A stretch of DNA of 64,000 nucleotides. Origin: an uncultured Bifidobacterium sp. (GTDB lineage Bacteria > Verrucomicrobiota > Verrucomicrobiia > Limisphaerales > JADLHS01). The notes beneath the pieces are model-generated. The model searched no databases and was not told where the DNA came from. It saw only the letters and a program-made list of their open reading frames with translations. The stretch is from contig CAZIJO010000001.1 in assembly GCA_964539515.1 (NCBI GenBank), positions 33,172 through 97,171 of the forward strand, in the 5' to 3' direction. A program made the translations under genes and the position numbers. Below are positions 169-29,891 of the stretch, piece by piece (position 1 is the stretch's first letter; each line of letters opens with the position of its first letter).

Positions 169-740
169 GCGAAAAGCAAAAATCCGATTCGCCGACCACG
201 CGCCGCACCTTCCTGCGGAACGGCGCCCGAATCGCGGCGATGACCGGGCTTGGCGCGCTGGCCGGCGTGGTGGCCAGCCGGAGTACGGCCGAGGGTTGGG
301 TCTGGCAGATTGATCCGCAGAAATGCCTCCGCTGCGGCAATTGCGCCACGAAGTGCGTGCTCGAACAGTCCGCGGTGAAGTGTGTCCATGCGTTCGCCAT
401 GTGCGGCTATTGCAATCTCTGCACTGGTTACTTCGAGCCGGAGCCGAACGCGCTCACGACCGCGGCCGAGAACCAACTCTGCCCGACGGGGGCCATCCAA
501 CGTTCGTTCGTGGAGGATCCGTATTACGAATATCGAATTGACGAAAAGCTTTGCATCGGTTGCGCCAAATGCGTCGAGGGTTGCAATCGCTTCGGCAACG
601 GTTCCCTGTTCCTGCAAATCCGTCACGACCGCTGTGTGCATTGCAACGAGTGCGCCATCGCCCGCACCTGTCCCGGCGACGCCTTCCGCCGCGTCCCGGT
701 CAGCCAGCCGTATCTGCTCAAGACCACCCACGCGCACTGA
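165..740 (+). CDS. Tat-exported multi-cluster 4Fe-4S ferredoxin (NapG-like)
   Basis: ATG 165. Twin-arginine signal SPTTRRTFLRNGARIAAMTGLGALAG. Ferredoxin Cys motifs CLRCGNCATKC, CGYCNLC..CPTGA, CIGCAKCVEGC, CVHCNECAIARTCP. The longer GTG-51 form in the ORF track is Gly/Arg-rich and overlaps the upstream CDS. Confidence 0.85.
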   Translation: MSEKQKSDSPTTRRTFLRNGARIAAMTGLGALAGVVASRSTAEGWVWQIDPQKCLRCGNCATKCVLEQSAVKCVHAFAMCGYCNLCTGYFEPEPNALTTAAENQLCPTGAIQRSFVEDPYYEYRIDEKLCIGCAKCVEGCNRFGNGSLFLQIRHDRCVHCNECAIARTCPGDAFRRVPVSQPYLLKTTHAH

Positions 741-742
741 CC

Positions 743-4005: not shown

Positions 4006-4032
4006 GCGATCCGATCCTGGTTGAATCATCAA

Positions 4033-6678
4033 ATGCCCATTGACCTGACCATTGCGGACGAGGCCGTGGCACGCATAGGCCGCAAGCCCGAAGCGTTGAT
4101 CCCGATCTTGCAAGCGTTGCAGGAGCGTTACGGCTATCTGCCGGAGGCGGCGTTGCGTCGCGTCTGCGAGACAACGCAGATCAAGCCCGCAGCGGTCATG
4201 GGCGTGGCATCGTTCTATGACATGTTCCGGATGCAGCCCACCGGCAAACATGTGGTGCGGGTGTGCCGGGGGACGGCCTGTCACGTGGCCGGCGCGGAGC
4301 GCGTGGAGGACGCGCTGCGGCGGCATCTGCAAATTCCCAATGACGCCGATACCGATCGCGACGGGCAGTTCACCATCGAACAGGTCGCGTGCCTGGGCAC
4401 ATGCACCCTCGCACCGGTGGTACGCATTGGCGAATCCACGATGGGTTATGCCACCGCCGAAAAAGTGCCCGAGCTGATGCGGGATTTTCTCGCGAGCCAG
4501 GCCATGGCAACGACCGTGAAGTCCACCGAAGGCAAGGGCGGCAATGGGGGTGCCGGCATCGCCGAAATCCACGTCGGGCTCGGCTCGTGTTGCATGGCGA
4601 AGGGGAGCGACCGTCTGTTTCATGCCCTGCGCGAGAGCGCGGCGACGGGGGGCGTAAACGTGGTGGTGAAGCGGGTGGGGTGCGTGGGGATGTGCCATCG
4701 GACGCCGATGGTTGAGGTCGCGACGCCGGGGGGCAAAGGTGAGTTTTACGCCGGGCTTTCGCCGGAGCAGGCCCGGGCGTTGGTCCAACGGCATTTCAAA
4801 CCGCGCGGTTTGGTCCAGCGCGCGAGTCGGCTTTGGACGCGCGTTTTGGATGGCTTGTTACTCGACGACACGGGCGAGCAACGCAAGGTGCAGCATTTCT
4901 CGATGAGCAAGCGCGACCCGGCGGTGCGGGCGTTTCTGGACCGGCAGGTCCACATCGCCACGGAACATTTCGGACGGCTGGACCCGTTGGATTTGGACGA
5001 GTATTTGGCGAACGATGGATTTGCCGCGTTGGCGAAATGTTTGGGTAGTGATTTGAACAACCGCCCTCACCCCAACCCTCTCCCCCAAGGGAGGGGGAAT
5101 GGTTCGCCAGCGTTTGAAAAGGCGAAAATCGGAGATGACCCAGGGGTGTTGGAGCGATCCGTAGACGGACGACTGCTGTTCCCTCTCCCTGGGGGAGAGG
5201 GTCAGGGTGAGGGCGAGCGTGGCTCGCAAAGTGAAATTGCTCAGAGCATCCTGCCATCGGCAGTTACGCGGGAAGCCATCATCTCAACGATCGAGAAATC
5301 CGGGTTGCGCGGGCGGGGTGGGGCGGGATTTCCCTCCGGACAAAAATGGCGCGTCGTTGCCCAGCAAGCCGGTGATACAAAATATGTGATCTGCAACGGC
5401 GACGAGGGCGATCCCGGGGCCTTCATGGACCGGATGATACTCGAATCATTTCCCTACCGGGTCATTGAAGGGCTGGCGATTGCGGCGGTGGCGGTCGGAG
5501 CGCGTGAAGGGATTTTCTACATCCGTCACGAGTATCCGCTGGCGGTGAAGCGGGTGCGCGCAGCCATTGCCGAATTGGAGCAACGGGGCTGGTTGGGGGA
5601 AAGACTGCTGGGGGTGGGAGCGTTCCTAACCCCATCCTCTTCCCCATCTGATGGAGAGCGGGTGGCGAAGCCGGGTGAGGGGTTGGCGGCTGGCTACCCG
5701 CTCAAGCTCTCGGTTTTCGAGGGCGCCGGCGCGTTTGTTTGCGGCGAAGAGACGGCGTTGATCGCTTCCATCGAAGGCGAGCGTGGCATGCCGAAGTTGC
5801 GCCCGCCGTTTCCAGCGCAGGAAGGACTCTGGGACAAGCCGACGCTCATCAATAATGTCGAGACGCTGGCCATGGTGCCGTGGATCCTGCGGAACGGGGC
5901 GGAGCAGTTTGCCGCCATCGGTACCGCCAAGAGCAAAGGCACGAAGGTTTTTGCCCTGGCGGGCAAGATCCGCCGCGGCGGCCTCATTGAAGTCCCGATG
6001 GGGACAACGATTCGCGAGATCGTGGAGGAAATTGGTGGCGGCGCGGCGGAGGGGCGGCGGTTCAAGGCGGTCCAGATCGGCGGGCCGAGCGGGGGCTGCG
6101 TCCCGGCGCGGCTCGCGGACACCCCGGTGGATTTTGAATCGTTGCGCGAAGTGGGTGCGATCATGGGCAGCGGCGGACTGGTGGTGCTCGACGACACCAG
6201 CTGCATGGTGGACATCGCGCGGTATTTCCTCCAGTTCACGCAGGATCAATCCTGCGGCAAATGCACGTTCTGTCGCATCGGGACCAAACGGATGCTCGAC
6301 ATCCTCGAGCGCCTTTGCACCGGCAAAGCGACCCGCTCCCACCTCGAAGAACTCGAACGGCTCGCGGCCCAGGTCGGGGCCGGCAGCTTGTGCGGGCTGG
6401 GTAAAACCGCCCCCAATCCGGTGCTGACGACGCTCCGTTATTTCCGCGAAGAGTACGAAGCGCACCTGCAAGGCCGTTGTCCCGCGCGTAAATGCACCGC
6501 GCTGATCCATTACACGATCAACGCCGATTGCACCGGTTGCACCCTCTGCGCGCAGCAGTGTCCGGTGGAAGCGATCCCGATGCTGCCGTACGCCCGGCAC
6601 GTGATTGATGACGCCAAGTGTACCCGATGCGACACATGTCGGCTGGTGTGTCCGCATAATGCCGTGGAGTTGAAATGA
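4033..6678 (+). CDS. NuoE-NuoF fusion flavoprotein (HydC/HydB- or HoxE/HoxF-like NAD(P)H dehydrogenase module) with C-terminal 2x[4Fe-4S] ferredoxin
   Basis: NuoE-type 2Fe-2S (CRGTACHVAG...CLGTCTLAPV). A second thioredoxin-like 2Fe-2S (GSCCMAKG...CVGMCHRTP). NuoF motifs GLRGRGGAGFPSGQKW, ICNGDEGDPGAFMDR, CGKCTFCRIG. Terminal CTGCTLCAQQCP / CTRCDTCRLVCP. The ORF track starts at TTG 4021; ATG 4033 is preferred but not proven. Confidence 0.9.
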   Translation: MPIDLTIADEAVARIGRKPEALIPILQALQERYGYLPEAALRRVCETTQIKPAAVMGVASFYDMFRMQPTGKHVVRVCRGTACHVAGAERVEDALRRHLQIPNDADTDRDGQFTIEQVACLGTCTLAPVVRIGESTMGYATAEKVPELMRDFLASQAMATTVKSTEGKGGNGGAGIAEIHVGLGSCCMAKGSDRLFHALRESAATGGVNVVVKRVGCVGMCHRTPMVEVATPGGKGEFYAGLSPEQARALVQRHFKPRGLVQRASRLWTRVLDGLLLDDTGEQRKVQHFSMSKRDPAVRAFLDRQVHIATEHFGRLDPLDLDEYLANDGFAALAKCLGSDLNNRPHPNPLPQGRGNGSPAFEKAKIGDDPGVLERSVDGRLLFPLPGGEGQGEGERGSQSEIAQSILPSAVTREAIISTIEKSGLRGRGGAGFPSGQKWRVVAQQAGDTKYVICNGDEGDPGAFMDRMILESFPYRVIEGLAIAAVAVGAREGIFYIRHEYPLAVKRVRAAIAELEQRGWLGERLLGVGAFLTPSSSPSDGERVAKPGEGLAAGYPLKLSVFEGAGAFVCGEETALIASIEGERGMPKLRPPFPAQEGLWDKPTLINNVETLAMVPWILRNGAEQFAAIGTAKSKGTKVFALAGKIRRGGLIEVPMGTTIREIVEEIGGGAAEGRRFKAVQIGGPSGGCVPARLADTPVDFESLREVGAIMGSGGLVVLDDTSCMVDIARYFLQFTQDQSCGKCTFCRIGTKRMLDILERLCTGKATRSHLEELERLAAQVGAGSLCGLGKTAPNPVLTTLRYFREEYEAHLQGRCPARKCTALIHYTINADCTGCTLCAQQCPVEAIPMLPYARHVIDDAKCTRCDTCRLVCPHNAVELK
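5063..5214. repeat. REP-doublet/MITE-like palindromic element lying in-frame inside the NuoEF gene
   Basis: Arms are GCCCTCACCCCAACCCTCTCCCCCAAGGGAGGGGG (5063-5097) and CCCTCTCCCTGGGGGAGAGGGTCAGGGTGAGGGC (5181-5214). They are reverse complements at ~31/35 positions. The right arm itself folds as CCCTCTCCC-TGG-GGGAGAGGG. Translated, the element gives PHPNPLPQGRGN...PLPGGEGQGEGE. Confidence 0.8.
5625..5685. repeat. Second short GC-rich palindromic repeat unit in-frame inside the NuoEF gene
   Basis: CCTAACCCC...GGGGTTGG termini pair with one bulge. There is an internal CCATCTGATGG palindrome. The element translates to LTPSSSPSDGERVAKPGEGL and interrupts the conserved segment just upstream of GAGAFVCGEETAL. 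Confidence 0.6.
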
Positions 6679-8264
6679 GCGACCCGTTCACCATCAGCAT
6701 CGATCGCCGGCCGGTTCAAGTCCGACCGGGCGAAAGCGTGTTGACCGCGGCGCGCCGGCTGGCCATTGATATTCCGACCCTCTGCTATCTGGAAAAGTGC
6801 GGGCCGCTCAACACCTGCCAGGTCTGCCTGGTGAAGCTTAACGGCAAGCTGGTGCCGTCCTGCGGGACAAAGGTCGCGCCCGGAATGGTGGTGGAGAGTG
6901 AGACGGAGGAAGTGCACGAGGCGCGGCGCACGGCGTTGGAGCTTTTGTTCAGCGATCATGTGGGCGATTGCCTGTCACCCTGTCACCGGTTGTGCCCCCT
7001 GATGCTGAACATTCCGCAAATGTTGCGGCACATTGAAGCGGAACGATTGGACGACGCGATCGCCACGGTACGGCAGGCTTTGCCGCTGGCAGGCGTGCTG
7101 GGGCGGTTGTGTCACCATCCATGTGAACAGGGCTGTCGGCGGGGCAACTGGGATTCGCCCGCCGCGATCCGCGACATGGAACGCTTTGTCACCGATCAGG
7201 ATCTCAAAAATGCCGGGCCCTACGTGCCGGGGACCAAGCCCGCCTCGGGGAAGACGGTGGTCATCATTGGCGCGGGACCGGCAGGGTTGGCGGCCGCCTA
7301 TTATCTCTCGCGCGAGGGACATGGTGTCACCGTGGTGGATCGTCAGCCGCGCGCCGGAGGCACTTTGCGGGAGGTGAGTGAAAGCCAGCTGCCCGGTTCC
7401 GTTTTGGAAGCGGAACTCGCCCTGCTTGCGCGGCAGGTCGTTGATTTCAAGCTGGGAGTGGAACTTGGCCAGCACGTCACGGTGGAGGGGCTGGCGCGCG
7501 GGTTTGGGGCGGTATTAGTGGCGACGGGAGAGCTGGGGCAGGAAGATGGTACCCGGATGGGCTTGCCGATGGCGGGGAAATTTGTCAAAGCGGATCCCAA
7601 CACCTGCCAGACTTTGATCGAGAAGGTCTTCGCTGCCGGCAGTGTGGTGCGGCCGCAGAAACAACTCGTGAAAGCCATGGCCGAAGGACGGGCGGCGGCG
7701 GAGTGCGTGCACCGGTTTTTGAGCGGCCAGCCCGTGCGGCGACCGGAAAAGCCCTTCTCCAGCATCATGGGCAAGGTGGATCCGGGCGAGCTGAAGGCGT
7801 TTCTCCGCGCGACCCACGCGGGCGGGAGCGTGTCGCCCTGCGACCGTTGTGCCGGGCACACGCGGCAGGAAGCGGCCCTGGAGTCGTCGCGTTGTCTGCA
7901 CTGCGACTGCCGTTCCTCCGGCAATTGCGTGTTGCAGCACTACGCGCAGACGTATGGGGCGAACGCGAGCCGTTTCCGCACGGAGCGCCGGGAGTTTGAC
8001 CAGCAGCTGCAACCGGGCGGCATCATTTTCGAACCGGGCAAATGCATCCTGTGCGGCATCTGCGTGAAGCTCACCGAAATGGCGGCCGAGCCGCTGGGCT
8101 TGACCTTCATCGGGCGCGGCTTTGATGTGAAGCTGAGCGCGCCATTTAGTCAGGCCATCGAGGCAGGGCTGCAGCAGGTGGCGGCGGAGTGTGTGCAGCA
8201 TTGCCCGACGGGCGCGCTGGTTTTCAAGAACGGGAAACCGAATTCCGCCGCCGGGGAAAAATGA
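6675..8264 (+). CDS. Iron-sulfur flavoprotein: NuoG-type N-terminal 2Fe-2S + GltD-like 4Fe-4S/FAD domain + C-terminal 4Fe-4S region
   Basis: ATGA overlap with the NuoEF stop. CYLEKCGPLNTCQVCLV (2Fe-2S). HHPCEQGCRRG (GltD-type cluster). A single dinucleotide fold VVIIGAGPAGLAAAYYL, then VFAAGS...AMAEGRAAA. Terminal CLHCDC..C and CILCGICVKL...CP motifs. Confidence 0.8.
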   Translation: MSDPFTISIDRRPVQVRPGESVLTAARRLAIDIPTLCYLEKCGPLNTCQVCLVKLNGKLVPSCGTKVAPGMVVESETEEVHEARRTALELLFSDHVGDCLSPCHRLCPLMLNIPQMLRHIEAERLDDAIATVRQALPLAGVLGRLCHHPCEQGCRRGNWDSPAAIRDMERFVTDQDLKNAGPYVPGTKPASGKTVVIIGAGPAGLAAAYYLSREGHGVTVVDRQPRAGGTLREVSESQLPGSVLEAELALLARQVVDFKLGVELGQHVTVEGLARGFGAVLVATGELGQEDGTRMGLPMAGKFVKADPNTCQTLIEKVFAAGSVVRPQKQLVKAMAEGRAAAECVHRFLSGQPVRRPEKPFSSIMGKVDPGELKAFLRATHAGGSVSPCDRCAGHTRQEAALESSRCLHCDCRSSGNCVLQHYAQTYGANASRFRTERREFDQQLQPGGIIFEPGKCILCGICVKLTEMAAEPLGLTFIGRGFDVKLSAPFSQAIEAGLQQVAAECVQHCPTGALVFKNGKPNSAAGEK

Positions 8265-9466: not shown

Positions 9467-9805
9467 ATGAATCAGACGCATCCACTGACAACCACCACGT
9501 TTGAACTGCCTGGCTACCAGGCGACGAAATCGTATGGCGTCGTGCGCGGCATCGTGGTGCGATCCCGCTCCATTATTGGCAACCTCGGCGCGAGCATTCA
9601 GAGCATCTTCGGCGGAAACATCACGCTCTACACCGAATTATGCGAACGGGCGCGCGAAGATGCGTTCAATCAGATGCTCGCACATGCCGGCAAGCTGGGC
9701 GCGAATGCCGTCCTCGGCGTGCGATACGATGCGACCGAAATTGGCAACGGCATAACGGAGGTGATTTGCTACGGCACGGCGGTGTCGGTGGAGTCGCTGC
9801 GGTGA
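9467..9805 (+). CDS. YbjQ/UPF0145 family protein
   Basis: [92 protein letters not shown] is the characteristic YbjQ pattern. Start is ATG 9467. Confidence 0.8.
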
Positions 9806-9963
9806 AGGTGCTTTCCTCCAGCGCGAAATTCCCTGCATGATTCAACTGCTTCCATTCGTGCCCGGCGGTACGGGACGCGACGCTGGCCGAACCCGGGCGG
9901 TTGGCGGCGTCGGGACGGGCAACGGCGAGGTGACGGCCAGGGTGGCCCGCGCCCGGATGTGAG

Positions 9964-12723
9964 ATGAAGACCCTGAGCAAGGAGAGTCTATTTGCACGGC
10001 TGCTGGGCCGGCTGGCGTGGGCGGTCATTCACCGGCGGCAGTGGTTTTTTTGGCCGCAGATCATCCTGTTCGGCCTCAGCGTGCTCTACACGGTCAAGTT
10101 TCTGGAGTTTCGCACCAACCGGAATGACCTCGTCGGGAGCGGCAAGAAATACCACCAGAATTTTTTGCAGTTCAAGCAGGAGTTTCCCACCCAGGACGAT
10201 CTGGTGGTGGTGGTGGAGAGCGAAAACGCCGAGAAGAACCGCCAGTTTGTCGAACGAATCGGGGCGAAACTGGAAGCGGAAACCAACCTCTTCATGCACG
10301 TCTTCTACAAGGGCGACCTGAAGATGCTCGGCTCGAAGGCGCTCCTGTTCGTGCCCGAGGCGGACCTCCTCGAGCTGCGGAAAAAGCTGAACGATTACCT
10401 GCCTTTCATCGGTCCTTTCACGCACACGACCAACCTGGTGTCGTTGTTCGACATGATCAACACCCAGTTCCGCACTGCCAAACGGGAGCGGGATGAACGG
10501 ACCGAGTCGCTCATCCGGGCCATCCCCGCCCTGGAGCGCATCGTAACGCAGGCCACCGCGAGTTTGCGGCGCGGCGGCAGTCCCCCCTCACCCGGCGTTT
10601 TTGCCTTGTTTGCCGCCGGCCCGGAAGCCGAGCGGAGCGTGTATATCACCTTTGCCCAGGGCCAGATTTATCTGGTCACCGCGCAGGCGGTGACGGAGGA
10701 AAAGAATAGTGCCGCCGTGCGGCGGCTGCGGCAGTTGGTGCAGGAAACGCAGGCCGAGGTGCCCGGCATCAACGTGGGCTTGACGGGCGAACCGGTGTTG
10801 GTCCATGACGAAATGAAGCAATCGCAAAGTGACACTTCGGTGGCCAGCGTTGTCTCGCTCATCATCTGCGCATTGATCTTCATCTACGGTTACAACGAGA
10901 CCGGCCGGCCGCTCAAAGCCACGGTTTGCCTCATCGTGGGGATCGGTTACACCATGGCCTTTACCACGGCGGTGGTGGGGCATTTGAACATCCTCACGGT
11001 CACCTTCGTTCCCATCCTGATCGGGCTGGCGATTGATTTCGGCGTGCATTTGGTGACGCGTTACGAGGAGGAATTGCATCATGGCAAGAGCGAGGCCGAG
11101 GCGATGACGAAGGCCCTGGTATTTACGGGGCAGGGAATCTTTACCGGGGCGTTTACCACCGCCGGCGCTTTTCTGGCCATGGGCTTTACGGATTTCAAGG
11201 GTATTCAGGAAATGGGGATCATTTGCGGCGGCGGCCTGCTGGTCTGTCTGGTGCCGATGCTGACCTTGCTGCCGGTGCTGCTCTTGCGGGGACGTCAGAA
11301 CGTGCTGGACCACGCCCTGGTCGGCAAAGTGGATCATCGGGCCCGGATCGAGAACCTGTGGCTGCGTCGCCCGGCCCTCGTGATCATCGTGACGTTGGTA
11401 TTATGCGCGGGGTCCGTGTGGCAGATGCGCAAGGTCATTTTCGATTACAACTTGCTCAACATGCAAAGCAAGGGTTTGCCGGCCGTGGATTTCGCCACCA
11501 AGTTGATCGACGCGACCGCGGAGGCCGGCAAGGACGACGGCACGAACGCCGCCGCCCGTTCGGTTTTGTTCGCGGCGGTCGTGACCGATTCCCTCACCCA
11601 GGCGGTGGAATTGGAAAAGCAAATCAAGCAGCTGCCGTCGGTGGCGGGGGTTGATTCCATCGCCAAGTTTCTGACCGAGAACCAGGCCGAGAAACTTCGG
11701 GTGATTGGCGAAATCAAGAAGGACCTGGCGGCGCTGCGGTTTGACGAGGCGGATCGACGTCCGGTGAATGTTCTGGAGTTAAGCCAGAGTCTTTACTCCT
11801 TGAACGGTTATATCGGGCTGGCCCGGGAGGAGGCGCAGAAAGACGATGCCGCGGTGACGGCCCGGCTGACTTCCCTTTATCGGGCGGTGGAAATTTTCCG
11901 CAAGGAAATGTTGCGGGGCGGGGCGGCGGGTCACGCGGCGGTCGCCGACCAGCTGGGAACGTATCAGCGCGCCCTCTTCGATGATTTGCGTTCCACGTTT
12001 GAAGCCCTGCAGCAGCAGGACAACCGGGAGAAGCTGCGCGTGGAGGACCTGCCGCCGGCCTTGCGGGATCGCTTTGTCGGTGTCCATGGCAAGCATTTGC
12101 TCCAGGTCTATCCCAAGGCCAACGTCTGGCAGCGGGCGCCGCAGGAAGAGTTTGTCCGCGAGTTGCGGACGATCGATCCCGATGTCACGGGCACACCGGT
12201 GCAATTGCTCGAATACACGACGCTGCTCAAGCGCAGTTACGAGGAGGCGGCACGCTATTCGCTCGCCGCGATTGCCATTCTGGTGTTCCTTCACTTCCGC
12301 TCCCTGGGTTCCGTCGTGCTGGCGTTGCTGCCCGTGGCGATTGGGTCGCTCTGGCTCGGCGGAATCATGGGCTGGTTCAGCATTCCGTTGAACCCGGCGA
12401 ATATCATGATGCTCCCGCTCATCATCGGCATCGGGGTGACGAACGGCATTCATATCCTGAATCGTTATGCCGAGGAACAGACGCCGAGCATCCTGGCCAA
12501 AAGCACCGGCAAAGCGGTGCTGGTGTCCGGCCTGACAACGATTGCGGGTTTTGGCAGCCTGGCGCTGGCCAAACATCGCGGCATTGAAAGTCTGGGATAT
12601 GTGATGGCCACCGGTGTGGCCACGTGCATGTTCGCCGGATTGACGTTCCTGCCGGCACTCCTGAACTTGATTATGAAAATTCGAAACGAGAAAAAAAACC
12701 AACCCAGTGCCAACAATGCATGA
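9964..12723 (+). CDS. MMPL/RND-superfamily exporter, HpnN-like architecture
   Basis: 919 aa with two 6-TM bundles (around aa 290-440 and 760-905) separated by large soluble loops. This is the typical MMPL/SSD organisation. The HpnN-like label is inferred from architecture only. Confidence 0.7.
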   Translation: MKTLSKESLFARLLGRLAWAVIHRRQWFFWPQIILFGLSVLYTVKFLEFRTNRNDLVGSGKKYHQNFLQFKQEFPTQDDLVVVVESENAEKNRQFVERIGAKLEAETNLFMHVFYKGDLKMLGSKALLFVPEADLLELRKKLNDYLPFIGPFTHTTNLVSLFDMINTQFRTAKRERDERTESLIRAIPALERIVTQATASLRRGGSPPSPGVFALFAAGPEAERSVYITFAQGQIYLVTAQAVTEEKNSAAVRRLRQLVQETQAEVPGINVGLTGEPVLVHDEMKQSQSDTSVASVVSLIICALIFIYGYNETGRPLKATVCLIVGIGYTMAFTTAVVGHLNILTVTFVPILIGLAIDFGVHLVTRYEEELHHGKSEAEAMTKALVFTGQGIFTGAFTTAGAFLAMGFTDFKGIQEMGIICGGGLLVCLVPMLTLLPVLLLRGRQNVLDHALVGKVDHRARIENLWLRRPALVIIVTLVLCAGSVWQMRKVIFDYNLLNMQSKGLPAVDFATKLIDATAEAGKDDGTNAAARSVLFAAVVTDSLTQAVELEKQIKQLPSVAGVDSIAKFLTENQAEKLRVIGEIKKDLAALRFDEADRRPVNVLELSQSLYSLNGYIGLAREEAQKDDAAVTARLTSLYRAVEIFRKEMLRGGAAGHAAVADQLGTYQRALFDDLRSTFEALQQQDNREKLRVEDLPPALRDRFVGVHGKHLLQVYPKANVWQRAPQEEFVRELRTIDPDVTGTPVQLLEYTTLLKRSYEEAARYSLAAIAILVFLHFRSLGSVVLALLPVAIGSLWLGGIMGWFSIPLNPANIMMLPLIIGIGVTNGIHILNRYAEEQTPSILAKSTGKAVLVSGLTTIAGFGSLALAKHRGIESLGYVMATGVATCMFAGLTFLPALLNLIMKIRNEKKNQPSANNA

Positions 12724-12802
12724 TCGGCCCTGGGTTGGGAGGAACCGAGGTAAAAACCTCACGCCGGGGAAAAATCCTCAAGCGCGAGCTCAATTTTAAA
12801 TA

Positions 12803-14431
12803 ATGCAACCGCAATGTCAATTCCCTTGCTTTAAGGGTGGTGCCGGCGGGCGGCTTCGTCCGAGCAAGCTATTGCCTGCCAATTGGAAACACCACAGCTG
12901 GTTGCTGGCTGCCTGGTTGGTGGGCGGCTGCTCCATTTTTGTTCACGGCAGCCAGGAGGCGGAGGTGGACGCCGGGTTCCTATTTTCCCGTCATCAGCTC
13001 ACCTTGGAGGCGGGCGACCGCACTGAGGCGGCGGGTCCGTTTTATTACGAGCAAGAAAGTGAAGCGGAAGAAGTTCTGGCGTTCCCGCCATTTTTTTCGC
13101 ACTCGGTCCGTCCGGACCTCGACGCCGAGGAGTACGATGTCCTGTATCCGTTGCTGAGTTTTGACCGCTTCGGCCGGGAGTATCGCTGGCACCTTTTCCA
13201 GTTGTTTAACTTTAGCGGCGGCCAGGATCAGTCCGAGGTGATGCGCCGCCAGTTCAACCTGTTCCCGGTTTACATGCAGCAACGTTCGGCCGACACAAAC
13301 CAGAACTACACGGCCATTTTTCCGATTTACGGTCACCTGAAGAAACGGATTTTTCGCAGCGAGATCGATTTCGTGCTCTGGCCGTTTTACGTGAAAACCG
13401 TCCGGCGCCCTTCCGCCAGCCCGGTGCCGCTGGGGCCGCAGGAAAATCTGCGGCGGCAATTTCTCGACGCCCGCCGGGGCGACTTCACCACCTACAACTA
13501 CGTGTACCCCTTCTATCATCTGCGTTACGGGGACGGGATGAAAGGCTGGCAGCTCTGGCCGTTCGTAGGCCACGAGCATAAGGAGATCACGACCAAGACG
13601 AATGTGTGGGGCGACCTGGAGACAACGCCGGGTTACGACAAACGCTTTGTCCTCTGGCCGTTTTATTTCAATCAGCAACGCGAAACCGGCACAACCAACG
13701 CCGAGGACCACGTGGGGGTGGTGCCGTTTTACAGTCGCCTGCGTTCCCCCATGCGCGACTCGACGAGTTACCTGACCCCGATTGGCCTGACGATCACGGA
13801 TGACCGCACGCGCAAGTACCACGAGGTGGGTGCCCCCTGGCCCTTCATCGTCTTCGCCCGGGGCGAGGGCAAAACCGCCGATCGGGTCTGGCCCTTCTTC
13901 AGTCTGGTTCACACGGACACACCGGAAAGCCGCCTGGACAGCAATTTCTATCTTTGGCCGATTTACAAATACAAGGGCATTCACTCGCCCCCGCTTGACT
14001 ATGGCCGCACGCGCATCCTGCTGTTCCTGGCATCGCACACGATCGCGAAGAGTTCCGAGACGGGCAATTTCCGGACCCGGACCGAGGTATGGCCGTTCTT
14101 CACGCACCAGCGCGATTACAACGGCAATGCGCGCCTGCAAATCCTCGCCCCGCTCGAGCCTTTGCTGCCGGCCAGCAAGAGCATCGAGCGCAATTACTCG
14201 CCGCTCTGGTCGGTGTGGCGCGCGGAAAAAAATCCCCGGACCGGCATGGCCAGCGAGTCGCTGCTCTGGAATCTGTACCGGCGCGACACCGCGCCCACGA
14301 GCAAAAAAAGCTCGCTCCTGTTCGGGCTTATCCAGTATGAATCCAGCGCCGAAACCAAACGCTGGCGGTTATTTTACCTCCCGCAGAAGAAATCACAGAG
14401 TTCTCCCGCTCATGTTTCAGAACATCGGTGA
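12803..14431 (+). CDS. Uncharacterised repeat lipoprotein ('WPFY' repeats)
   Basis: Signal-like WLLAAWLVGGC (possible lipobox). At least 13 copies of hydrophobic-(W/Y/F)-P-(F/I/L)-(Y/F): FPPFF, LYPLL, LFPVY, IFPIY, LWPFY, VYPFY, LWPFV, LWPFY, VVPFY, PWPFI, VWPFF, LWPIY, VWPFF. The 3' end overlaps mlaE by 20 nt. Confidence 0.75.
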   Translation: MQPQCQFPCFKGGAGGRLRPSKLLPANWKHHSWLLAAWLVGGCSIFVHGSQEAEVDAGFLFSRHQLTLEAGDRTEAAGPFYYEQESEAEEVLAFPPFFSHSVRPDLDAEEYDVLYPLLSFDRFGREYRWHLFQLFNFSGGQDQSEVMRRQFNLFPVYMQQRSADTNQNYTAIFPIYGHLKKRIFRSEIDFVLWPFYVKTVRRPSASPVPLGPQENLRRQFLDARRGDFTTYNYVYPFYHLRYGDGMKGWQLWPFVGHEHKEITTKTNVWGDLETTPGYDKRFVLWPFYFNQQRETGTTNAEDHVGVVPFYSRLRSPMRDSTSYLTPIGLTITDDRTRKYHEVGAPWPFIVFARGEGKTADRVWPFFSLVHTDTPESRLDSNFYLWPIYKYKGIHSPPLDYGRTRILLFLASHTIAKSSETGNFRTRTEVWPFFTHQRDYNGNARLQILAPLEPLLPASKSIERNYSPLWSVWRAEKNPRTGMASESLLWNLYRRDTAPTSKKSSLLFGLIQYESSAETKRWRLFYLPQKKSQSSPAHVSEHR

Positions 14432-15152
14432 AATGGTGCTCCTTTTTTGGAGGACGTTGTGCGCGCTGCCGCGGATCTGGTCGCAGCGCGCCAAGGTTAT
14501 GGACCAGTTCTACGAGATTGGCAATGCCAGTCTGCTCATGATCTGTGTGCTCTCGTTCTTCTTGGGCGGCGTGATTGCGCTGCAAACGGGTCCGCTCCTG
14601 GTCGAGCGGGGCTTGCACAATGCCGTGGGCGGGCTCGTCGGCATCGCCATGGCCAAGGAACTGGCGCCGATCATGATGGCCATTCTGATCTCCGGCCGCG
14701 TCGGTTCGGCGATGGCCGCCGAAATCGGCTCCATGCGCGTTTATCAGGAAATCGATGCGCTCCGGACCATGAACATTGATCCGGTCAACTACCTCGTCCT
14801 GCCCCGCCTCGCCGCGATCGCGATTGCCCTCCCCATGCTCGTCATCTTTGCCATCCTGGTCGGCTGGCTTGGCGGCGCCGTCGTCTGTACGGTCACCGGC
14901 CAGATCGATATTCCCATCCAGTCGTTCTTCACCACCATGAAGGACGTCGTGGAGGTCAAGCACGTTGCCAACGGCGTGGTCAAGAGCTTCTGCTTCGCGT
15001 GGATCGTGGGCATTGTTTCCTGTCACCAAGGCCTCATCACGCGCGGCGGTCCCCGTGGTATCGGGCGCTCCGTCACCAAAGCCGTGGTCAACTCGATCGT
15101 GTTAATCGTTATCTTCAACTTCGTCCTCACGCGCATCCTGCTCGACTGGTGA
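14412..15152 (+). CDS. mlaE: MlaE-type ABC permease (phospholipid/MCE transport)
   Basis: ATG 14412 (MFQNIGEMVLLFWRTL...). Conserved MlaE-like segments QFYEIGNASLLMICVLSFFLGGVIALQ, MAKELAPIMMAILISGRVGSAMAAEIGSMRVYQEIDALRTM, VKSFCFAWIVGIVSCHQG. Confidence 0.9.
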   Translation: MFQNIGEMVLLFWRTLCALPRIWSQRAKVMDQFYEIGNASLLMICVLSFFLGGVIALQTGPLLVERGLHNAVGGLVGIAMAKELAPIMMAILISGRVGSAMAAEIGSMRVYQEIDALRTMNIDPVNYLVLPRLAAIAIALPMLVIFAILVGWLGGAVVCTVTGQIDIPIQSFFTTMKDVVEVKHVANGVVKSFCFAWIVGIVSCHQGLITRGGPRGIGRSVTKAVVNSIVLIVIFNFVLTRILLDW

Positions 15153-15916
15153 ACGTTCCCCCCAACAATAATCACGGCGTCAGCGTTCAAATCCGCGGAT
15201 TGCGACGCAGTTTCGGCCAGCAGCCGGTGCTCAAGGGGATTGACCTCGCCGTCCGCGCCGGCGAAATCTTCGTGCTGATGGGGCCGAGCGGGAGCGGCAA
15301 GAGCGTATTGCTCCGCCATGTCATCGGCCTCGAAGTGCCCGATGCCGGCGAGATTCTCGTCGGGGGCGAGTCCATCCAGGCGGCCGGCGTCATGGACCGC
15401 TTCCGCATGGCAATGGTTTTTCAGTCCGGCGCCCTGCTCAATTCGCTCACCGTCGGCGAGAATGTGGGTCTTTATCTGAGTGAACATCAGCTCCGCCCGC
15501 CGGAGGAGATCGCCCGGGTCGTTTCCGAAAAACTGGAGGTCGTCGGCTTGAAGGGCACCGAGGAAAAATATCCCAGTGAGCTCTCCGGCGGCATGAAGAA
15601 GCGCGTCGCCATGGCCCGCGCGCTCGTCATCGAGCCGCAGTTGATTCTCTATGATGAACCGACCAGCGAATTGGACCCGATTTCCGCCGTCGTCATCGGG
15701 GAGGAAATTCTCGCGCTGAACCAGCGCATCGGCGTCACCTCGCTCGTCGTCTCGCATGACCGGGACCTCGCCTTCGGCATCGCCCATCGCATCGCCGTGA
15801 TTAACGAAGGGGAAATCCTCGCCGTCGGTTCGCCAGACGAGGTCCGGCGCAGTCATCATCCGATTATCCGTGAATTCCTCCATGCCGACTTTCGACGACC
15901 GGAACCCAACCTATGA
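15149..15916 (+). CDS. mlaF: MlaF-type ABC ATPase
   Basis: GTG 15149 overlaps the mlaE stop (GTGA). Walker A GPSGSGKS, signature LSGGMKKRVAMARAL, Walker B LILYDEPTSELD, H-loop VVSHD. Confidence 0.9.
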   Translation: MNVPPNNNHGVSVQIRGLRRSFGQQPVLKGIDLAVRAGEIFVLMGPSGSGKSVLLRHVIGLEVPDAGEILVGGESIQAAGVMDRFRMAMVFQSGALLNSLTVGENVGLYLSEHQLRPPEEIARVVSEKLEVVGLKGTEEKYPSELSGGMKKRVAMARALVIEPQLILYDEPTSELDPISAVVIGEEILALNQRIGVTSLVVSHDRDLAFGIAHRIAVINEGEILAVGSPDEVRRSHHPIIREFLHADFRRPEPNL

Positions 15917-16884
15917 AAAACACCCTTGAAACCCGCCTCGGCCTGTTCGTGTCCTTCATCGTGCTGGCCGCCTTCATCATCATGTACATTTTGGGCGGCT
16001 TTGAAAAATTCCAGCGCGGCCTCCAGGTCCATGCCTTGTTCAAAACGGCCCAGGAATTGAAACTGGGCGACCGCGTGAAAATGGCCGGCGTCGAGGTCGG
16101 CAAAGTGGATAAGATCGAACTCGCCGACGGCAAAGTGCGCGTCACCATGAGCCTCCGCGCCAACACCCCGGTCAAGACCGACACGACCGCCACGATCAAG
16201 TTCGCCGGTTTAATGGGGCAGAGTTTCGTCGCGCTCGATTTCGGCACCCCCGCCGGCCGGCCCGCCACCCCGGACAGCTTTCTGCAAACGGTCGAGCAAC
16301 CCGACCTGAGCGTGATCATGCAGAAGCTGGACAATGTGGCCACCGGGGTGGAGAACCTCACCCGCAGTTTCACCGGTGACAAAATCGAGAACCTCTTTGG
16401 CCCTCTGACGGATTTTATCAAACAGAATACCGCTCCGCTCACGGCCACCATCGCCAACCTTCGGGCCATGTCCGGCCAGATCGCCGAGGGCAAGGGCACC
16501 TTTGGCAAACTCATTTACGACGATGCGCTCTACAACTCCGCCCTGACCACGGTGACCAGCCTGCAATCCACGACGGAGGAGATCAAACTTGCCCTGGGGG
16601 ATGCCCGCAAGATCATCGATGGCGTCAATGCCGGAGAGGGCTCGCTCGGGAAACTGGTGAAGGATGAGAAGCTCTACGCCGAAACCACGGCCTCGATGAC
16701 GAACCTCAAGGAAATTCTCCAAAAGATGAACAGCGGCCAGGGCACGGTCGGCAAACTCATCAACGACCAGGAATTCTACAAGAACGCCAAGCTCACCTTG
16801 CAGAAAGTGGACAAGGCGACGGAGGGTTTGGAAGACCAGGGCCCGTTGAGTGTCCTGGGCATCCTGGTGAACAACTTGTTCTGA
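15913..16884 (+). CDS. mlaD: MlaD/MCE-domain substrate-binding protein with extended helical C-terminus
   Basis: ATGA overlap with mlaF. N-terminal TM (LGLFVSFIVLAAFIIMYIL). MCE fold region (LKLGDRVKMAGVEVGKVDKIEL...VRVTM). Three C-terminal G-x-G-(T/S)-x-GKL-x-x-D motifs. Confidence 0.9.
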   Translation: MKNTLETRLGLFVSFIVLAAFIIMYILGGFEKFQRGLQVHALFKTAQELKLGDRVKMAGVEVGKVDKIELADGKVRVTMSLRANTPVKTDTTATIKFAGLMGQSFVALDFGTPAGRPATPDSFLQTVEQPDLSVIMQKLDNVATGVENLTRSFTGDKIENLFGPLTDFIKQNTAPLTATIANLRAMSGQIAEGKGTFGKLIYDDALYNSALTTVTSLQSTTEEIKLALGDARKIIDGVNAGEGSLGKLVKDEKLYAETTASMTNLKEILQKMNSGQGTVGKLINDQEFYKNAKLTLQKVDKATEGLEDQGPLSVLGILVNNLF

Positions 16885-16895: not shown

Positions 16896-16928
16896 AAAAA
16901 CGGAGGGACGACCAGGATCGTCCCTCCG
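16896..16928 (-). terminator. Rho-independent terminator between convergent mlaD and the Spy-like gene
   Basis: Perfect 11-bp stem CGGAGGGACGA / TCGTCCCTCCG (16901-16911 / 16918-16928) with a 6-nt loop. On the minus strand it is followed by TTTTT (complement of AAAAA 16896-16900). Confidence 0.75.
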
Positions 16929-16953: not shown

Positions 16954-17403
16954 CTACTCCTGCGCCGGCTTTTCCGCCCCCGGACCTCCGGGACCGCCAC
17001 GTCGGCCGGGTCGCCCGGGGCCGCCCGGGCCGCCTTCTTTCCTGAGTTTCTCCCACTTCGCATATTGTTCCGGCGTGAGAATCTCTTTCATCTTCTTTTG
17101 CATTTCCTCCCGCCCGGCTTTCATCTTTTCACGGCGTTCTTCCGGGGTGGCATCGCGCAAGCCGCGCATGGCTTCGGCTTGTTCCTTCATCACCGTCGTT
17201 ACCTTCGTCTTCTGTTCGTCGGTGAGCTTGAGTTCCTCGGCCATCTTGGCGATGCGTTCCTTGACCATCTCCCCGCGTTGCCCCTGGGGTGGCCGGCCTT
17301 CGGGCGGACCTGGCTTGTCTTCCGCCCGCCCCATGGGGCTCAACGCGATCAACGCCCCGGCGGCCAAGGCCGTCATTATTCCAACTTTTTGCATTTTCAT
17401 CAT
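16954..17403 (-). CDS. Periplasmic LTXXQ-motif protein (Spy/CpxP-like) with Gly/Pro-rich tail
   Basis: Start at MMKMQKVGIMTALAAGALIALSPMGRA (signal). LKLTDEQKTKV and LTPEQYAKW motifs. C-terminal GGPGGPGRPGRRGGPGGPG. Confidence 0.7.
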   Translation of the reverse strand: MMKMQKVGIMTALAAGALIALSPMGRAEDKPGPPEGRPPQGQRGEMVKERIAKMAEELKLTDEQKTKVTTVMKEQAEAMRGLRDATPEERREKMKAGREEMQKKMKEILTPEQYAKWEKLRKEGGPGGPGRPGRRGGPGGPGAEKPAQE

Positions 17404-17558
17404 CTGCCTCTTTCTTTCTTTTTTTGCCGCTCCTTCATGGCGCGGCGGCTGTAACGTGAGACGCCGCCGGGGCAAATTGGTTACAGGCCATCCGGCCCCA
17501 AAAGTTAAAAATCCACGCGTGACTTTGGCGGGGGAAACTGAAACATTCCGCCCGCATT

Positions 17559-18986: not shown

Positions 18987-21900
18987 TTGATCTCCGTGAA
19001 ACTCATCCGGTTCATCACGTTCGGACTCGCCTGGGGCCAGACTCTTGGTTTTGGTGCAGAGTCCTCGAGACCCGCGGCCTCTATCTCCGAACGCGGCGAC
19101 CATTATCGGGTCTGGCAGCGGGTCACGGTGGAGCGGGATGAGGAAGGCAGACCCTATTCGCTGACCAACTCCGCCTACACCGAACTGGAAACGGGGATGC
19201 ACGTAAAACAACCCGATGGCACCTGGGCGGAAGCCAGCGACGAAATTGAGATCATTCATTCAGGTGGAATCGCACGAAAAACCCGGCACCGGGTGCATTT
19301 TGCCCCAAACTGCAACTCACCGGTGGCGATTGATTTGCTGAGCGCTGACGGGAGACGTCTGCGTTCACGAATCTTGGGGCTCGGTTTTTTTGACCGTAGC
19401 TCCCGGAAAAGTGTCTTGATAGCGGAGATCAAGGACTCCGAAGGTCGCCTGCTGATGGAGAACCGGAACGAAGTGGTTTATTACGATGCCTTCACCGATC
19501 TCAAAGCGGATGTGCGCTACAGAAACAGCAAGGCCGGGCTGGAACAAGACATCATCCTTCGCGAGAATCCGCCTTCCCCCGCCGAGTACGAGTTGAATCC
19601 GGCGACGACCGTCCTTGAAGTCCTGACCGAGTTTATCAGTCCGCCGGTGCCGAAGAAGCGGGTGCGGATGGTTTCCGGCGACGCCGATGAATTCTTGGAT
19701 TTCGGTGATCTCAAGATGGGAAACGGGCGGGTATTTCTTTTGGGCAAGACCGGGGGCGAAATTCCGGTAACGAAGCAGTGGGGCAATCTGGACCGACGGA
19801 CTTTCCTGATTGAGCAAATTCCTTACAAATCCATCGAGCCGGAACTGAAGTCCTTGCCGCGGAAGACGGCTGCGCGAAGGATTTCCCCGGATGGCGTGCT
19901 TCACCGGGTTTCGGCCCGGCGACTTTTGCCCGAGGTCCAACCCACAAAGCAAGTCTCGGGGTCCCTGCTGCTGGCTAGCGCACCGTTGAGCGGGCCAGGA
20001 GTCGTGTTGGATTACATCATCGCGAGCAGCGATGAAAATTACACTTTCCGCGGGGACACGACTCATTACGTCAACGGCCCCGTCCATCTCAGTGGGACCA
20101 ACACAACCATTGAGGGCGGGGCCGTAATCAAGTTTGCCCGGTCGGCTTCCGCCAGGATTGACATCACTGGTCGCATCAATTGCCAGACGGGAGCGTATCG
20201 GCCGGCAGTGTTCACCGGCGAGGATGATAACACGGTCGGGGAGACCATTGCCGGCAGCACGGGGAGTCCAACCAACCACTACGGGAATGGCTTGACCGTC
20301 ATCACGCCGGGCAACGCGCTCCACGATCTCCGTTTTCTTTACGCTGGCAGCGCGGTCAATTTGGGGTTCACGGCCGGGCTGATTCAACTGGCCAATGTGC
20401 AGTTCGTAAGATGTCAGCACCCGCTCGATTCCAGCGGACAGGACGCGAACACCATCGCGATTGAGAACAGCCTTTTTTATTCCAGTGTTCATGTGGTTCA
20501 TGGTGGACAATCCTTGACGGTGCGGGGCCTGCAGCTGACGGCCAATCACTGTTCGAGTCTTGTCGATCCGGAGTTTTTCGCCGGGGCCGGGCAGCTCTAT
20601 CTGACTAATTCCCTGATTGTGGCCGCGACCAACGGTTGGGGCCAGTCTGATGAGATGCTCGGTTCCGTGACCACCGATAGCACGGTGTTGATTACAAATT
20701 GTCCCGCGGGGGTCTTTCAAACCGTCGGGGCGGCCAGCCATTACCTAGCGGACCAGACTTACCGCAACGCGGGCACCACGAATATCCCTGCCGCGCTGGT
20801 GGAAGCTTTGAAAAGCCGGACCACGTGTCCGCCCCTCTTGCTCACCACCAATTTCACCGCCAACACGATCCTTGCCCCGCAGGCGCTCCGCGACGCGGAC
20901 CTACCGGATTTGGGGTATCATTACGATCCCCTGGATTACGTGATGAGCGGACGGACGGTGTCCGCGAATCTGACCTTGACCAACGGCGTGGCGGTGGGCA
21001 CGTACGGCCCTTCGTCTTCGTTTGGACTGGGGATGATCTCCGGGAAACTGGTGTCGGAAGGTGGGCCCACCCAATTGAACTGGATCGCCCGCTACAATGT
21101 CGTTCAGGAGCAAAGCACGACCAACTGGTCGGCGGGCAGCGTTGCCCCTTCGGTCAAACTCGGGGCGCTGACCCGGTTTGAATTCACGGCGTGGTCGCTC
21201 TTGGGGAACAATGGCAATCACGTTTACGCTTTGAAACCGGGGAGTGGCTCGTTCGGTTTCCGGAACTGTCAATTTGGCGGGGGCGGATTTTATTTTTATG
21301 GTGACCGCGACGGTGGACTGACCAACTGCCTGTGGGAGCGGGTTCGTTTTAACCTCGGGAATTGGAAGAATCAGCCGAACCACGATCTTTACAACAACTT
21401 GTTCCGGGGTGGTTCAGTGCAGGTCGCCAACTATGATGGCGGGATATCCACGATCCGGGACAATCTGTTCGACGAAACTAGCATCGACCAGGGTGGCACT
21501 CTGGTCCACAGCCACAATGCCTACGTCATGGGCTCGAGTCGTCTGACCCCGCCCAATTCCAGCGACGTGGTGCTATCGGGCGCGCCCACTTACCAGACCA
21601 GTTTTTTGGGCAATCATTATTATCCAACCAACGGAGCGTCGATGAACCTGTTGCTGAACGCTGGCAGCCGTAAGGCCGGCGACGCCGGGCTTTTTCACTA
21701 CACCACCATGTCAAATCAGGCGAAGGAAACCAACTCGACGGTGGACATTGGCTTTCACTACGTGGCAACCGATGGGCTGACCAGTCGGCCGGTTGACACC
21801 GACGGGGACGGGTTGCCCGATTATCTCGAAGATCGGAACGGCAATGGAAGTTACAACTCCGGGGACATTGCCAACTGGAACGCGGCCGATACGGACAGCG

Positions 21901-22010
21901 ATGGGGTAGAGGACGGCACCGAGCTCATCCAGGGCCGCCGCCCAACGGTTGGGGGGCTTTTGGATTCAGGCAATCTGACGAAATTGAAAGTATTCACCCC
22001 GTTAAGATAG
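18987..22010 (+). CDS. Secreted right-handed beta-helix-like protein with C-terminal DxDxDG calcium-type repeats
   Basis: Signal-like (M)KLIRFITFGLAWGQTLGFGA (TTG 18987 or GTG 18996). LGYHYDPLDY and DIGFHYVA segments typical of beta-helix proteins. C-terminal DTDGDGLPDYLEDRNGNG...DTDSDGVEDGTE. The stop TAG abuts the RHS start. Confidence 0.8.
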   Translation: MISVKLIRFITFGLAWGQTLGFGAESSRPAASISERGDHYRVWQRVTVERDEEGRPYSLTNSAYTELETGMHVKQPDGTWAEASDEIEIIHSGGIARKTRHRVHFAPNCNSPVAIDLLSADGRRLRSRILGLGFFDRSSRKSVLIAEIKDSEGRLLMENRNEVVYYDAFTDLKADVRYRNSKAGLEQDIILRENPPSPAEYELNPATTVLEVLTEFISPPVPKKRVRMVSGDADEFLDFGDLKMGNGRVFLLGKTGGEIPVTKQWGNLDRRTFLIEQIPYKSIEPELKSLPRKTAARRISPDGVLHRVSARRLLPEVQPTKQVSGSLLLASAPLSGPGVVLDYIIASSDENYTFRGDTTHYVNGPVHLSGTNTTIEGGAVIKFARSASARIDITGRINCQTGAYRPAVFTGEDDNTVGETIAGSTGSPTNHYGNGLTVITPGNALHDLRFLYAGSAVNLGFTAGLIQLANVQFVRCQHPLDSSGQDANTIAIENSLFYSSVHVVHGGQSLTVRGLQLTANHCSSLVDPEFFAGAGQLYLTNSLIVAATNGWGQSDEMLGSVTTDSTVLITNCPAGVFQTVGAASHYLADQTYRNAGTTNIPAALVEALKSRTTCPPLLLTTNFTANTILAPQALRDADLPDLGYHYDPLDYVMSGRTVSANLTLTNGVAVGTYGPSSSFGLGMISGKLVSEGGPTQLNWIARYNVVQEQSTTNWSAGSVAPSVKLGALTRFEFTAWSLLGNNGNHVYALKPGSGSFGFRNCQFGGGGFYFYGDRDGGLTNCLWERVRFNLGNWKNQPNHDLYNNLFRGGSVQVANYDGGISTIRDNLFDETSIDQGGTLVHSHNAYVMGSSRLTPPNSSDVVLSGAPTYQTSFLGNHYYPTNGASMNLLLNAGSRKAGDAGLFHYTTMSNQAKETNSTVDIGFHYVATDGLTSRPVDTDGDGLPDYLEDRNGNGSYNSGDIANWNAADTDSDGVEDGTELIQGRRPTVGGLLDSGNLTKLKVFTPLR

Positions 22011-28594: not shown

Positions 28595-28595
28595 G

Positions 28596-29872: not shown

Positions 29873-29891
29873 CGCATTTTCGTATTTTGGT

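Follow-up and report, generated by a model that had tools for sequence, protein, structure and literature searches.

A secreted β-hairpin repeat protein encoded with the needle-type MlaEFD transporter of Verrucomicrobiota is a candidate periplasmic accessory subunit

What completes an MlaEFD lipid transporter on the outer-membrane side when MlaA and MlaC are missing? The question is raised by a 64-kb stretch of contig CAZIJO010000001.1 (assembly GCA_964539515.1; labelled uncultured Bifidobacterium sp., placed by GTDB in Verrucomicrobiota/Limisphaerales), called the window here, in which a 542-aa protein of no known family is encoded 5′ of mlaE. This protein was given the working name REP. The survey of Grasekamp et al. 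2023 (PMC10665443) describes MlaEFD as a widespread ancestral core with a long MlaD in most cases. The MlaD of Veillonella spans the envelope and has its own C-terminal barrel, a feature wholly absent from the MlaD proteins of the Planctomycetes-Verrucomicrobia-Chlamydiae (PVC) and Fibrobacteres-Chlorobi-Bacteroidetes (FCB) groups (PMC10665443). Because their MlaD proteins lack the barrel, the outer-membrane end of PVC and FCB Mla systems is undefined, and the survey allows for 'as yet unidentified proteins' (PMC10665443). Most Verrucomicrobia, including the one subdivision-3 genome of that survey, have MlaD, MlaE and MlaF without MlaA, MlaB or MlaC (PMC10665443, supplementary file 3, read with a column order inferred from the content of the table); the exceptions in the table are Coraliomargarita akajimensis, whose MlaA and MlaC are linked to a second Mla system, Moanabacter, DG1235 and strain 61-8. 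A preliminary description of the window had reported the same absence, and a Pfam scan found no MlaA, MlaB or MlaC, and hence no canonical E. coli-type Mla pathway, in the operon or in the scanned open reading frames (ORFs) of the window, some small ORFs lying outside the scan. The analysis below favors REP as a dedicated periplasmic accessory subunit of a needle-type MCE/MlaFED ABC transporter, a reading to which a probability of about 0.6 was assigned.

The linkage of REP to mlaE, mlaF and mlaD was surveyed in one genome per GTDB species. The scan gave 353 REP relatives, and the best 80 of these loci plus five further ones (85) were mapped with the window proteins; nearly all of the best 80 are labelled Verrucomicrobiota, Verrucomicrobiia or Limisphaerales. 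mlaE lies directly 3′ of REP on the same strand in 78 of the 79 loci with enough sequence, and the whole mlaE-mlaF-mlaD set follows REP in 65 of 66. REP and mlaE overlap by 17–20 nt in 20 loci, and most other gaps are <100 nt. The linkage extends to distant relatives. Full-length REP members recovered by a profile search are just 22–30% identical to the window REP, and homologues of one divergent REP include proteins from Ruficoccus, Nibricoccus, Puniceicoccaceae and Opitutaceae, taxa of the class Opitutia; NCBI places Limisphaerales in another class. REP, mlaE, mlaF and mlaD are on one strand in all seven divergent contexts, often with 4-nt overlaps, and the flanks of these modules differ: rRNA methyltransferase genes lie by REP in several, ribosomal-protein genes and dnaB in locus L088, and an alanine racemase gene in locus L086. 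REP-mlaE-mlaF-mlaD is a conserved four-gene module across two classes. The coupling of REP to MlaEFD that the preliminary description had read from this stretch, and the co-occurrence in PVC genomes that it had proposed as a check, are both borne out, since the association is kept down to ~22% identity in two NCBI classes, far beyond chance. The same description had named a combination that would speak against its reading, namely mlaA and mlaC elsewhere together with a REP that is not co-conserved with mla genes; the published survey makes MlaA and MlaC unexpected in this lineage, and REP is strongly co-conserved.

Three side observations came from the mapped loci. Implausible labels on metagenome-assembled genomes that carry the module, such as 'uncultured Bifidobacterium sp.', 'Akkermansia muciniphila', 'Haliangiales' and 'Methylomirabilota', probably reflect mislabelling or mis-binning (L002, L008, L010, L014, L019, L040, L054, L077 and others). 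The REP homologue in L086 has 653 aa. A second, divergent mlaE/mlaF pair (28–39% identical) lies a few kb 5′ of the REP module in L010 (3042–7175) and L014 (1055–2502), in keeping with the report of two MlaD/MlaE/MlaF sets in a subdivision-3 genome; no REP copy was detected beside the second pair in either locus. This arrangement suggests that REP may serve only one of the paralogous Mla systems.

The junctions of the window operon were read base by base. All six ORFs of the block are on the plus strand in the order ybjQ-like gene, RND transporter gene, REP, mlaE, mlaF and mlaD, as the preliminary description had it. REP occupies 12803–14431, with its stop codon at 14429–14431, and mlaE (14412–15152; 246 aa) starts at ATG 14412, which confirms the 20-nt overlap. 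An alternative in-frame mlaE ATG at 14433 would give a 1-nt spacer after REP instead of the overlap. Alignments of homologues by tblastn begin 17 nt inside REP, and the residues ahead of ATG 14433 are conserved in these homologues, so the upstream start is favored. The GTGA overlap between mlaE and mlaF (15149–15916; 255 aa) and the ATGA overlap between mlaF and mlaD (15913–16884; 323 aa) were likewise found as described. On the 5′ side, REP is separated from the RND gene by an 80-nt gap without a terminator-like site. With these junctions, the gene to which REP is translationally coupled is mlaE and not RND. The block was said to end at a strong terminator. A GC-rich hairpin with a 12-bp stem is present at 16901–16928 (−25 kcal/mol, z = −4.6), assigned to neither strand and lying between mlaD and a convergent gene, so the strong hairpin stands; the T-run is found on the minus strand only, and the plus strand has an A-run ahead of the stem and no U-run behind it. 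The T-run serves the convergent minus-strand gene rather than mlaD. That gene (16954–17475, minus strand) encodes an LTXXQ-family (Spy/CpxP-like) periplasmic protein with a Gly/Pro-rich C-terminus, and it is again found 3′ of mlaD in the closest loci (L002, L004 and L011).

REP belongs to a large family that has escaped annotation. At E values up to 1e-3 there are at least 2700 homologous database proteins, all annotated as hypothetical or unnamed, and a profile search of 1.8 billion representatives returned 1569 REP-family clusters at 50% identity. REP matches no Pfam or NCBIfam family, 47 aligned members have no Pfam match even at E = 5, and the precomputed Pfam annotation, which includes the recent PF28544, is empty for every homologue. 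The REP profile had no match among PDB sequences, the assembly collection contains no sequence identical to the window REP, and the literature search found no prior description of REP, nor of Verrucomicrobia Mla beyond the 2023 survey. A hydrophobic signal-like segment is present in 275 of the 291 members with a called N-terminus, and most of those sampled close with a signal-peptidase I motif of the AxA type. By a loose pattern 25 of these 291 members have a lipobox, and by a strict one 6. The window REP has the loose form only (LVGG-C), and its 88%-identical homologue has none. The label 'repeat lipoprotein' in the preliminary description thus does not describe the family, and REP is predicted to be exported by a signal peptide. 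The Limisphaerales proteins have a long N-terminal extension before the hydrophobic segment (12803–12880 in the window) in which the motif M-x-x-x-Q-[SC]-Q recurs; if translation began at an in-frame TTG near 12872, REP would have a more ordinary signal peptide, and the REP start is putative.

The conserved residues of REP were identified by comparing 218 close and 189 distant members. Sixteen prolines are conserved in both groups (P79, P96, P116, P155, P174, P194, P236, P253, P286, P308, P326, P347, P364, P386, P431 and P467), as are five tryptophans that precede conserved prolines and eight glycines. Y196, Y310, R361 and L488 complete the set, and almost nothing else is conserved family-wide. 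The window REP contains 13 copies of a turn motif, x-[WFY]-P-[FIL]-[YF], each in an inter-strand loop. Because the conserved residues are nearly all turn prolines, tryptophans and glycines, REP is better regarded as a scaffold than as a protein with a catalytic site. An outer-membrane lipase or a lipid A-modifying enzyme was also considered and rejected, there being no cluster of polar residues conserved across the family.

AlphaFold2 (AF2) predicts an all-β structure for REP from the 47-sequence alignment, with a mean predicted local distance difference test (pLDDT) score of 82 and a predicted TM-score of 0.67. The model has an N-terminal helix at residues 28–47, which corresponds to the signal peptide, and ~44 strands between residues 62 and 523; the loop at 205–225 and the tail at 528–542 are disordered. 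The strands are short, 4–8 residues with a mean of 5.9, and polar, with 29% hydrophobic residues and 34% charged residues or His. Mature REP (~480 aa) is hydrophilic, with a grand average of hydropathy (GRAVY) of −0.63 and a pI of 9.0; it contains 15.8% aromatics and no Cys. A transmembrane β-barrel calls for strands of about 9 residues or more with alternating hydrophobic side chains, and REP has neither the length nor any alternation along its strands. Short, polar strands in a hydrophilic mature protein indicate that REP is not a transmembrane β-barrel. Foldseek gave local matches with probabilities of 0.9–1.0 to MORN-repeat proteins, the TCP10 G-box, OspA, teneurin/RHS regions and β-propellers, and all of these high-probability matches are arrays of consecutive β-hairpins. 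Mean-field direct coupling analysis of 395 REP sequences with gap-rich columns removed brought out only contacts between neighboring hairpins, and the long-range pairs resembled noise or repeat-register artefacts from which no topology was derived. On the model, REP is best described as a secreted, hydrophilic array of ~22 β-hairpins in which every second turn, on one edge of the sheet, would carry an aromatic-Pro cluster.

The transporter encoded with REP is of the needle type. MlaE belongs to the MlaE permease family (PF02405, E = 1e-71), scoring 221 bits against TIGR00056 with a cutoff of 212. The ATPase (PF00005, E = 2e-30) scores 189 bits against the MlaF equivalog NF008809, below the cutoff of 441, and it is therefore called MlaF-type by position and not as an equivalog. 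MlaD consists of a transmembrane helix, one MCE domain (PF02470, E = 1e-18, residues 36–111) and a C-terminal helical region of ~190 aa. All 120 listed MlaD homologues, 70–96% identical, carry both PF02470 and PF28544 (Helical_needle), and it is through these homologues that the needle domain is assigned to the window MlaD. The MlaD proteins beside divergent REPs also carry the MCE and Helical_needle domains. Among solved structures, the Mce1 subunit 8fed_B is closest to the window MlaD (E = 9e-13) and aligns over residues 7–228, thus through the helical region after the MCE domain; E. coli MlaD aligns across the MCE domain only. The AF2 monomer places a transmembrane helix at residues 2–26, the MCE β domain at 37–126 and helices at 132–322. 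The confidence of this model is low, with a pLDDT <50 in the helical region, as one would expect of a segment whose folding requires the oligomer. The domain calls in the homologues, the 8fed_B alignment and the predicted helices thus all place a helical region C-terminal to the MCE domain.

The distal part of MlaD has its own conserved features. Residues 193–323 contain three copies of a G-x-G-[ST]-x-G-K-L-[IV]-x-D-x-x-[LF]-Y motif ~40 residues apart, and the C-terminal end is a conserved hydrophobic tip, GPLSVLGILVNNLF, that is retained even in Opitutia homologues. By analogy with Mce1, this tail could form a small multimeric tip barrel, or it could insert into a partner. The 433-aa MlaD beside a very divergent REP in L088 (10141–11442; MCE E = 1e-19) has a C-terminal extension ~110 aa longer than that of the window protein, and needle length seems to vary between lineages.

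These features can be assembled into a working model. The MlaE permease and the MlaF ATPase would form the inner-membrane motor. MlaD, anchored by one transmembrane helix, would assemble into a hexameric MCE ring by analogy with solved MCE proteins, and the ring would be extended by the helical needle. REP would be exported through a cleaved type I signal peptide and fold as an elongated hydrophilic array of ~22 hairpins, with the aromatic-Pro clusters at every second turn forming an aromatic stripe along one edge. It may bind the MlaD assembly, on its periplasmic or distal part, and either link that assembly to the outer membrane or stabilize, extend or cap the needle. The aromatic-Pro edge is the candidate contact surface for the needle, for another REP copy or for the inner leaflet of the outer membrane. 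Elsewhere this job falls to MlaA with MlaC, to PqiC, to TGD4 or, in Veillonella, to the C-terminal barrel of MlaD itself. That REP docks at or bridges to the outer membrane specifically is roughly half as probable as the accessory-subunit reading as a whole. The preliminary description had suggested an outer-membrane or bridging partner for MlaEFD; a bridge is a reasonable inference and nothing firmer, and a protein embedded in the outer membrane does not agree with strands so short and polar. With its large, unannotated family and its near-invariant link to mlaEFD, REP is a phylum-wide candidate for the missing component at the outer-membrane end. Cultured strains, Ruficoccus amylovorans and Ruficoccus sp. 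ZRK36, carry REP, which makes the hypothesis testable by genetics, pull-downs and cryo-EM.

A bolder version of the model is doubtful. In this version REP would represent a new class of envelope-bridging lipid-transport component, an elongated hairpin ribbon whose aromatic-Pro edge runs along the needle or extends it to the outer membrane, replacing MlaA and MlaC. Its length would be on the order of 150–200 Å if the ~44 modelled strands form one extended sheet. In Limisphaerales REP might also take lipid from the HpnN-like RND transporter, so that a single periplasmic rail would serve the ABC and RND transporters in opposite directions.

Several observations weigh against REP as a dedicated MlaEFD subunit. 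Physical binding of REP to MlaD is inferred, and the coevolution analysis, with an effective number of sequences (Meff) of 263, is too weak to show contact. With neither a conserved lipid anchor nor strands that cross a membrane, REP has no evident means of attachment to the outer membrane. Foldseek searches of PDB and BFVD gave no global match for the model, the query-normalized TM-score being ≤0.21. Taken by itself, the conserved operon position is also what one would expect of a chaperone, an assembly factor or a protein that regulates the transporter. Finally, one locus (L065, 1–6376) has no mlaE after REP and carries opposite-strand genes there instead. L065 is labelled Candidatus Limnocylindria; mis-binning, a chimeric contig or a genuine rearrangement could each account for it.

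The alternative that survives best, though unlikely, is that REP is a soluble lipid carrier that shuttles between the membranes as a functional replacement for MlaC and is not a fixed subunit. A secreted, overall hydrophilic protein that usually has no anchor would suit this role in Verrucomicrobia, most of which lack MlaC, and the aromatic stripe offers a possible binding surface for acyl chains. The sequence, however, gives no sign of an enclosed hydrophobic pocket, and the hydrophobic residues lie at turns and not on a continuous strand face. REP, a repeat scaffold, is also 2.5 times as large as MlaC, and a needle-type MlaD argues for a bridge over a shuttle (PMC10665443).

The MMPL/RND inner-membrane transporter (9964–12723, plus strand; 919 aa; PF03176, E = 4e-44) was called HpnN-like in the preliminary description. 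As a family resemblance the term is apt, since the nearest solved structures are the HpnN entries 6wu0 and 5khn (E ~1e-51, full length), but the protein is not HpnN proper. It scores 565 bits against TIGR03480 (HpnN; cutoff 751.85) and 328 bits against the HpnN equivalog NF052374 (cutoff 1100), below every HpnN cutoff, and 251 bits against the BstA model (cutoff 1400). The hopanoid substrate that had been linked to it finds no support: along with these scores, the scanned ORFs of the 64-kb window contain no hopanoid-synthesis Pfam domains (shc, hpn), some small ORFs being outside the scan, and squalene-hopene cyclase is poorly conserved in Verrucomicrobiota (PMC12324291). The ybjQ-like gene 5′ of the RND gene (9467–9805, plus strand; 112 aa from ATG 9467, with the ORF open from 9314) encodes a YbjQ protein (PF01906 YbjQ_1, E = 1e-31, 110 bits against a cutoff of 23, profile positions 2–103 of 103). 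Such a gene lies 5′ of RND, or directly 5′ of REP (L009, L010), in many Limisphaerales loci, and a tblastn search of five loci of the Opitutia branch (L081–L085) gave no match to it.

Of 69 informative loci, 57 have the RND gene directly 5′ of REP and 12 lack it. The REP-mlaEFD unit occurs without a nearby RND gene in L010, L013, L024, L028, L033 and L036, the RND gene is not adjacent in L051, and none of the seven divergent contexts has an RND gene 5′ of REP. Because the four-gene order is kept in those contexts without the RND gene, REP-MlaEFD is the conserved unit. The pump had been presented as an integral part of the block, a claim that does not hold given these absences; the HpnN-like pump, with ybjQ, is a neighbor acquired or retained in the Limisphaerales branch, outside the core module. 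An integral HpnN-like pump with a hopanoid substrate is an attractive idea that lacks support. It is also quite unlikely that REP primarily partners the RND transporter, as its periplasmic acceptor or outer-membrane partner, with the position beside mlaEFD being secondary. This reading has in its favor the 57 loci with direct adjacency, the terminator-free gap in the window and a precedent in Proteobacteria, where hpnN loci contain the MlaC-like HpnM and the MlaA-like HpnS (PMC12324291). It is countered by the six loci and seven divergent contexts in which REP-mlaEFD persists without the RND gene, by the non-adjacent arrangement in L051 and by translational coupling that is to mlaE and not to RND.

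An equally improbable explanation is that REP has nothing to do with lipid transport and shares only a transcript with mlaEFD; it might then bind the cell wall or polysaccharide, or act as a general scaffold in the periplasm. No evidence from domains, ligands or interactions ties REP to lipids. Arrays of repeated hairpins, of which MORN is one, serve as generic interaction modules, and choline-binding repeats are comparable. Near-universal adjacency to mlaE and overlap with it, at 22% identity and in unrelated neighborhoods, would nevertheless be hard to maintain without a functional link. The least probable of the readings, and a very unlikely one, makes REP an integral outer-membrane β-barrel for lipid passage, a separate equivalent of the Veillonella MlaD barrel or of TGD4/LptD; its all-β, aromatic-rich and Cys-free mature part, its signal peptide, the weak Foldseek matches to LptD, TOM40 and VDAC and the lack of a barrel in PVC MlaD proteins are set against the strand and hydropathy values given above, TM-scores of ~0.1 at low probability for those barrel matches and the absence of a terminal β-signal, the last strand being followed by a disordered tail of ~15 aa. 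The accessory-subunit reading is thus retained.

Other parts of the window contain unrelated features. A 2194-aa ORF (22010–28594) has RHS repeats and a C-terminal Tle1-like phospholipase domain of the type VI secretion system. It is preceded by a 1007-aa ORF without a Pfam match (18987–22010) that ends at the start of the RHS ORF, and followed by small ORFs without Pfam matches (28534–29061 and 29058–29426), with GC content falling to 0.52 at 28001–30000. The features of 18987–29426 suggest a polymorphic toxin locus that may include immunity genes. At 43910–53189, PSCyt1/PSCyt2/PSD1 (DUF1549/DUF1553) and DUF1501 genes form two pairs in tandem. The pairing of PSCyt and DUF1501 genes is typical of Planctomycetota and Verrucomicrobiota. 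At the other end, positions 551–8264 hold an Fe-S/flavoprotein gene cluster with Fer4 domains, an 885-aa NuoE/NuoF-like fusion, a 2Fe-2S and FAD oxidoreductase, and a 615-aa PQQ/BamB-like β-propeller protein (2158–4005).

The REP-MlaEFD module can be placed among known lipid transport systems. It shares with the canonical E. coli MlaFEDB-MlaC-MlaA/OmpC pathway the genes for MlaE, MlaF and an MCE-domain MlaD in one operon and in the same order. It differs in having no MlaB, MlaC or MlaA in the operon or the window, in the extra first gene, REP, and in an MlaD that has a needle and is 140 aa longer than the 183-aa E. coli protein. Mce1 (8fed) is the closest solved sequence relative of the window MlaD. 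Mce1 has YrbE (MlaE-like) permeases and the MceG ATPase. It is built from six different MCE subunits and actinobacterial accessory proteins, whereas the window has one mlaD gene whose product is presumably a homohexamer, and REP has no Mce1 counterpart. The MORN-type and other single-sheet hairpin arrays (junctophilin 9uo9, giant-virus MORN proteins, the TCP10 G-box and OspA) resemble REP in their consecutive hairpins of ~20 aa in one antiparallel sheet, a likeness that is local only. The low query-normalized TM-score rises to 0.40 only if short targets are taken for the normalization, the turn motif of REP is its own, and the 47 members gave no sequence match to MORN (PF02493) at E values up to 5.

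A proteobacterial parallel is the HpnN-HpnM/HpnS arrangement, in which an HpnN-family RND gene also lies beside Mla-type lipid-trafficking genes, and a 2025 preprint proposes that proteobacterial HpnN works with the MlaC-like and MlaA-like proteins (PMC12324291). The window differs in an RND protein that scores below the HpnN cutoffs, in neighbors that are MlaEFD and REP rather than MlaC-like and MlaA-like proteins, and in the dispensability of the RND gene for the module. PqiABC, with its partner PqiC, and Mpc, the chimeric Mla-Pqi system of Brucella, each combine a needle-bearing MCE protein with a separate, dedicated partner at the outer-membrane end, and the Mpc motor is also MlaE/MlaF-like (PMC10897342, PMC12436622). 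PqiC, as described there, is an outer-membrane lipoprotein that forms an octameric toroid (PMC10897342, PMC12436622). REP has no family match to PqiC and no conserved lipobox, and because it has no Pfam match of any kind it is not PqiC-like by sequence; its ~480-aa mature form is all-β, built of repeats and usually not lipidated. The minimal MlaEFD system of Veillonella parvula is like the window system in having the core without MlaA, MlaB or MlaC and a long MlaD with a transmembrane segment, an MCE domain and a helical extension proposed to bridge the periplasm (PMC10665443). The 419-aa Veillonella MlaD ends in its own outer-membrane barrel, whereas the 323-aa window MlaD has none, in agreement with the finding for PVC bacteria (PMC10665443), and the window system has a separate 542-aa secreted repeat protein encoded ahead of mlaE. 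What is new here is an MCE/Mla transporter with a previously undescribed fourth component that is found phylum-wide.

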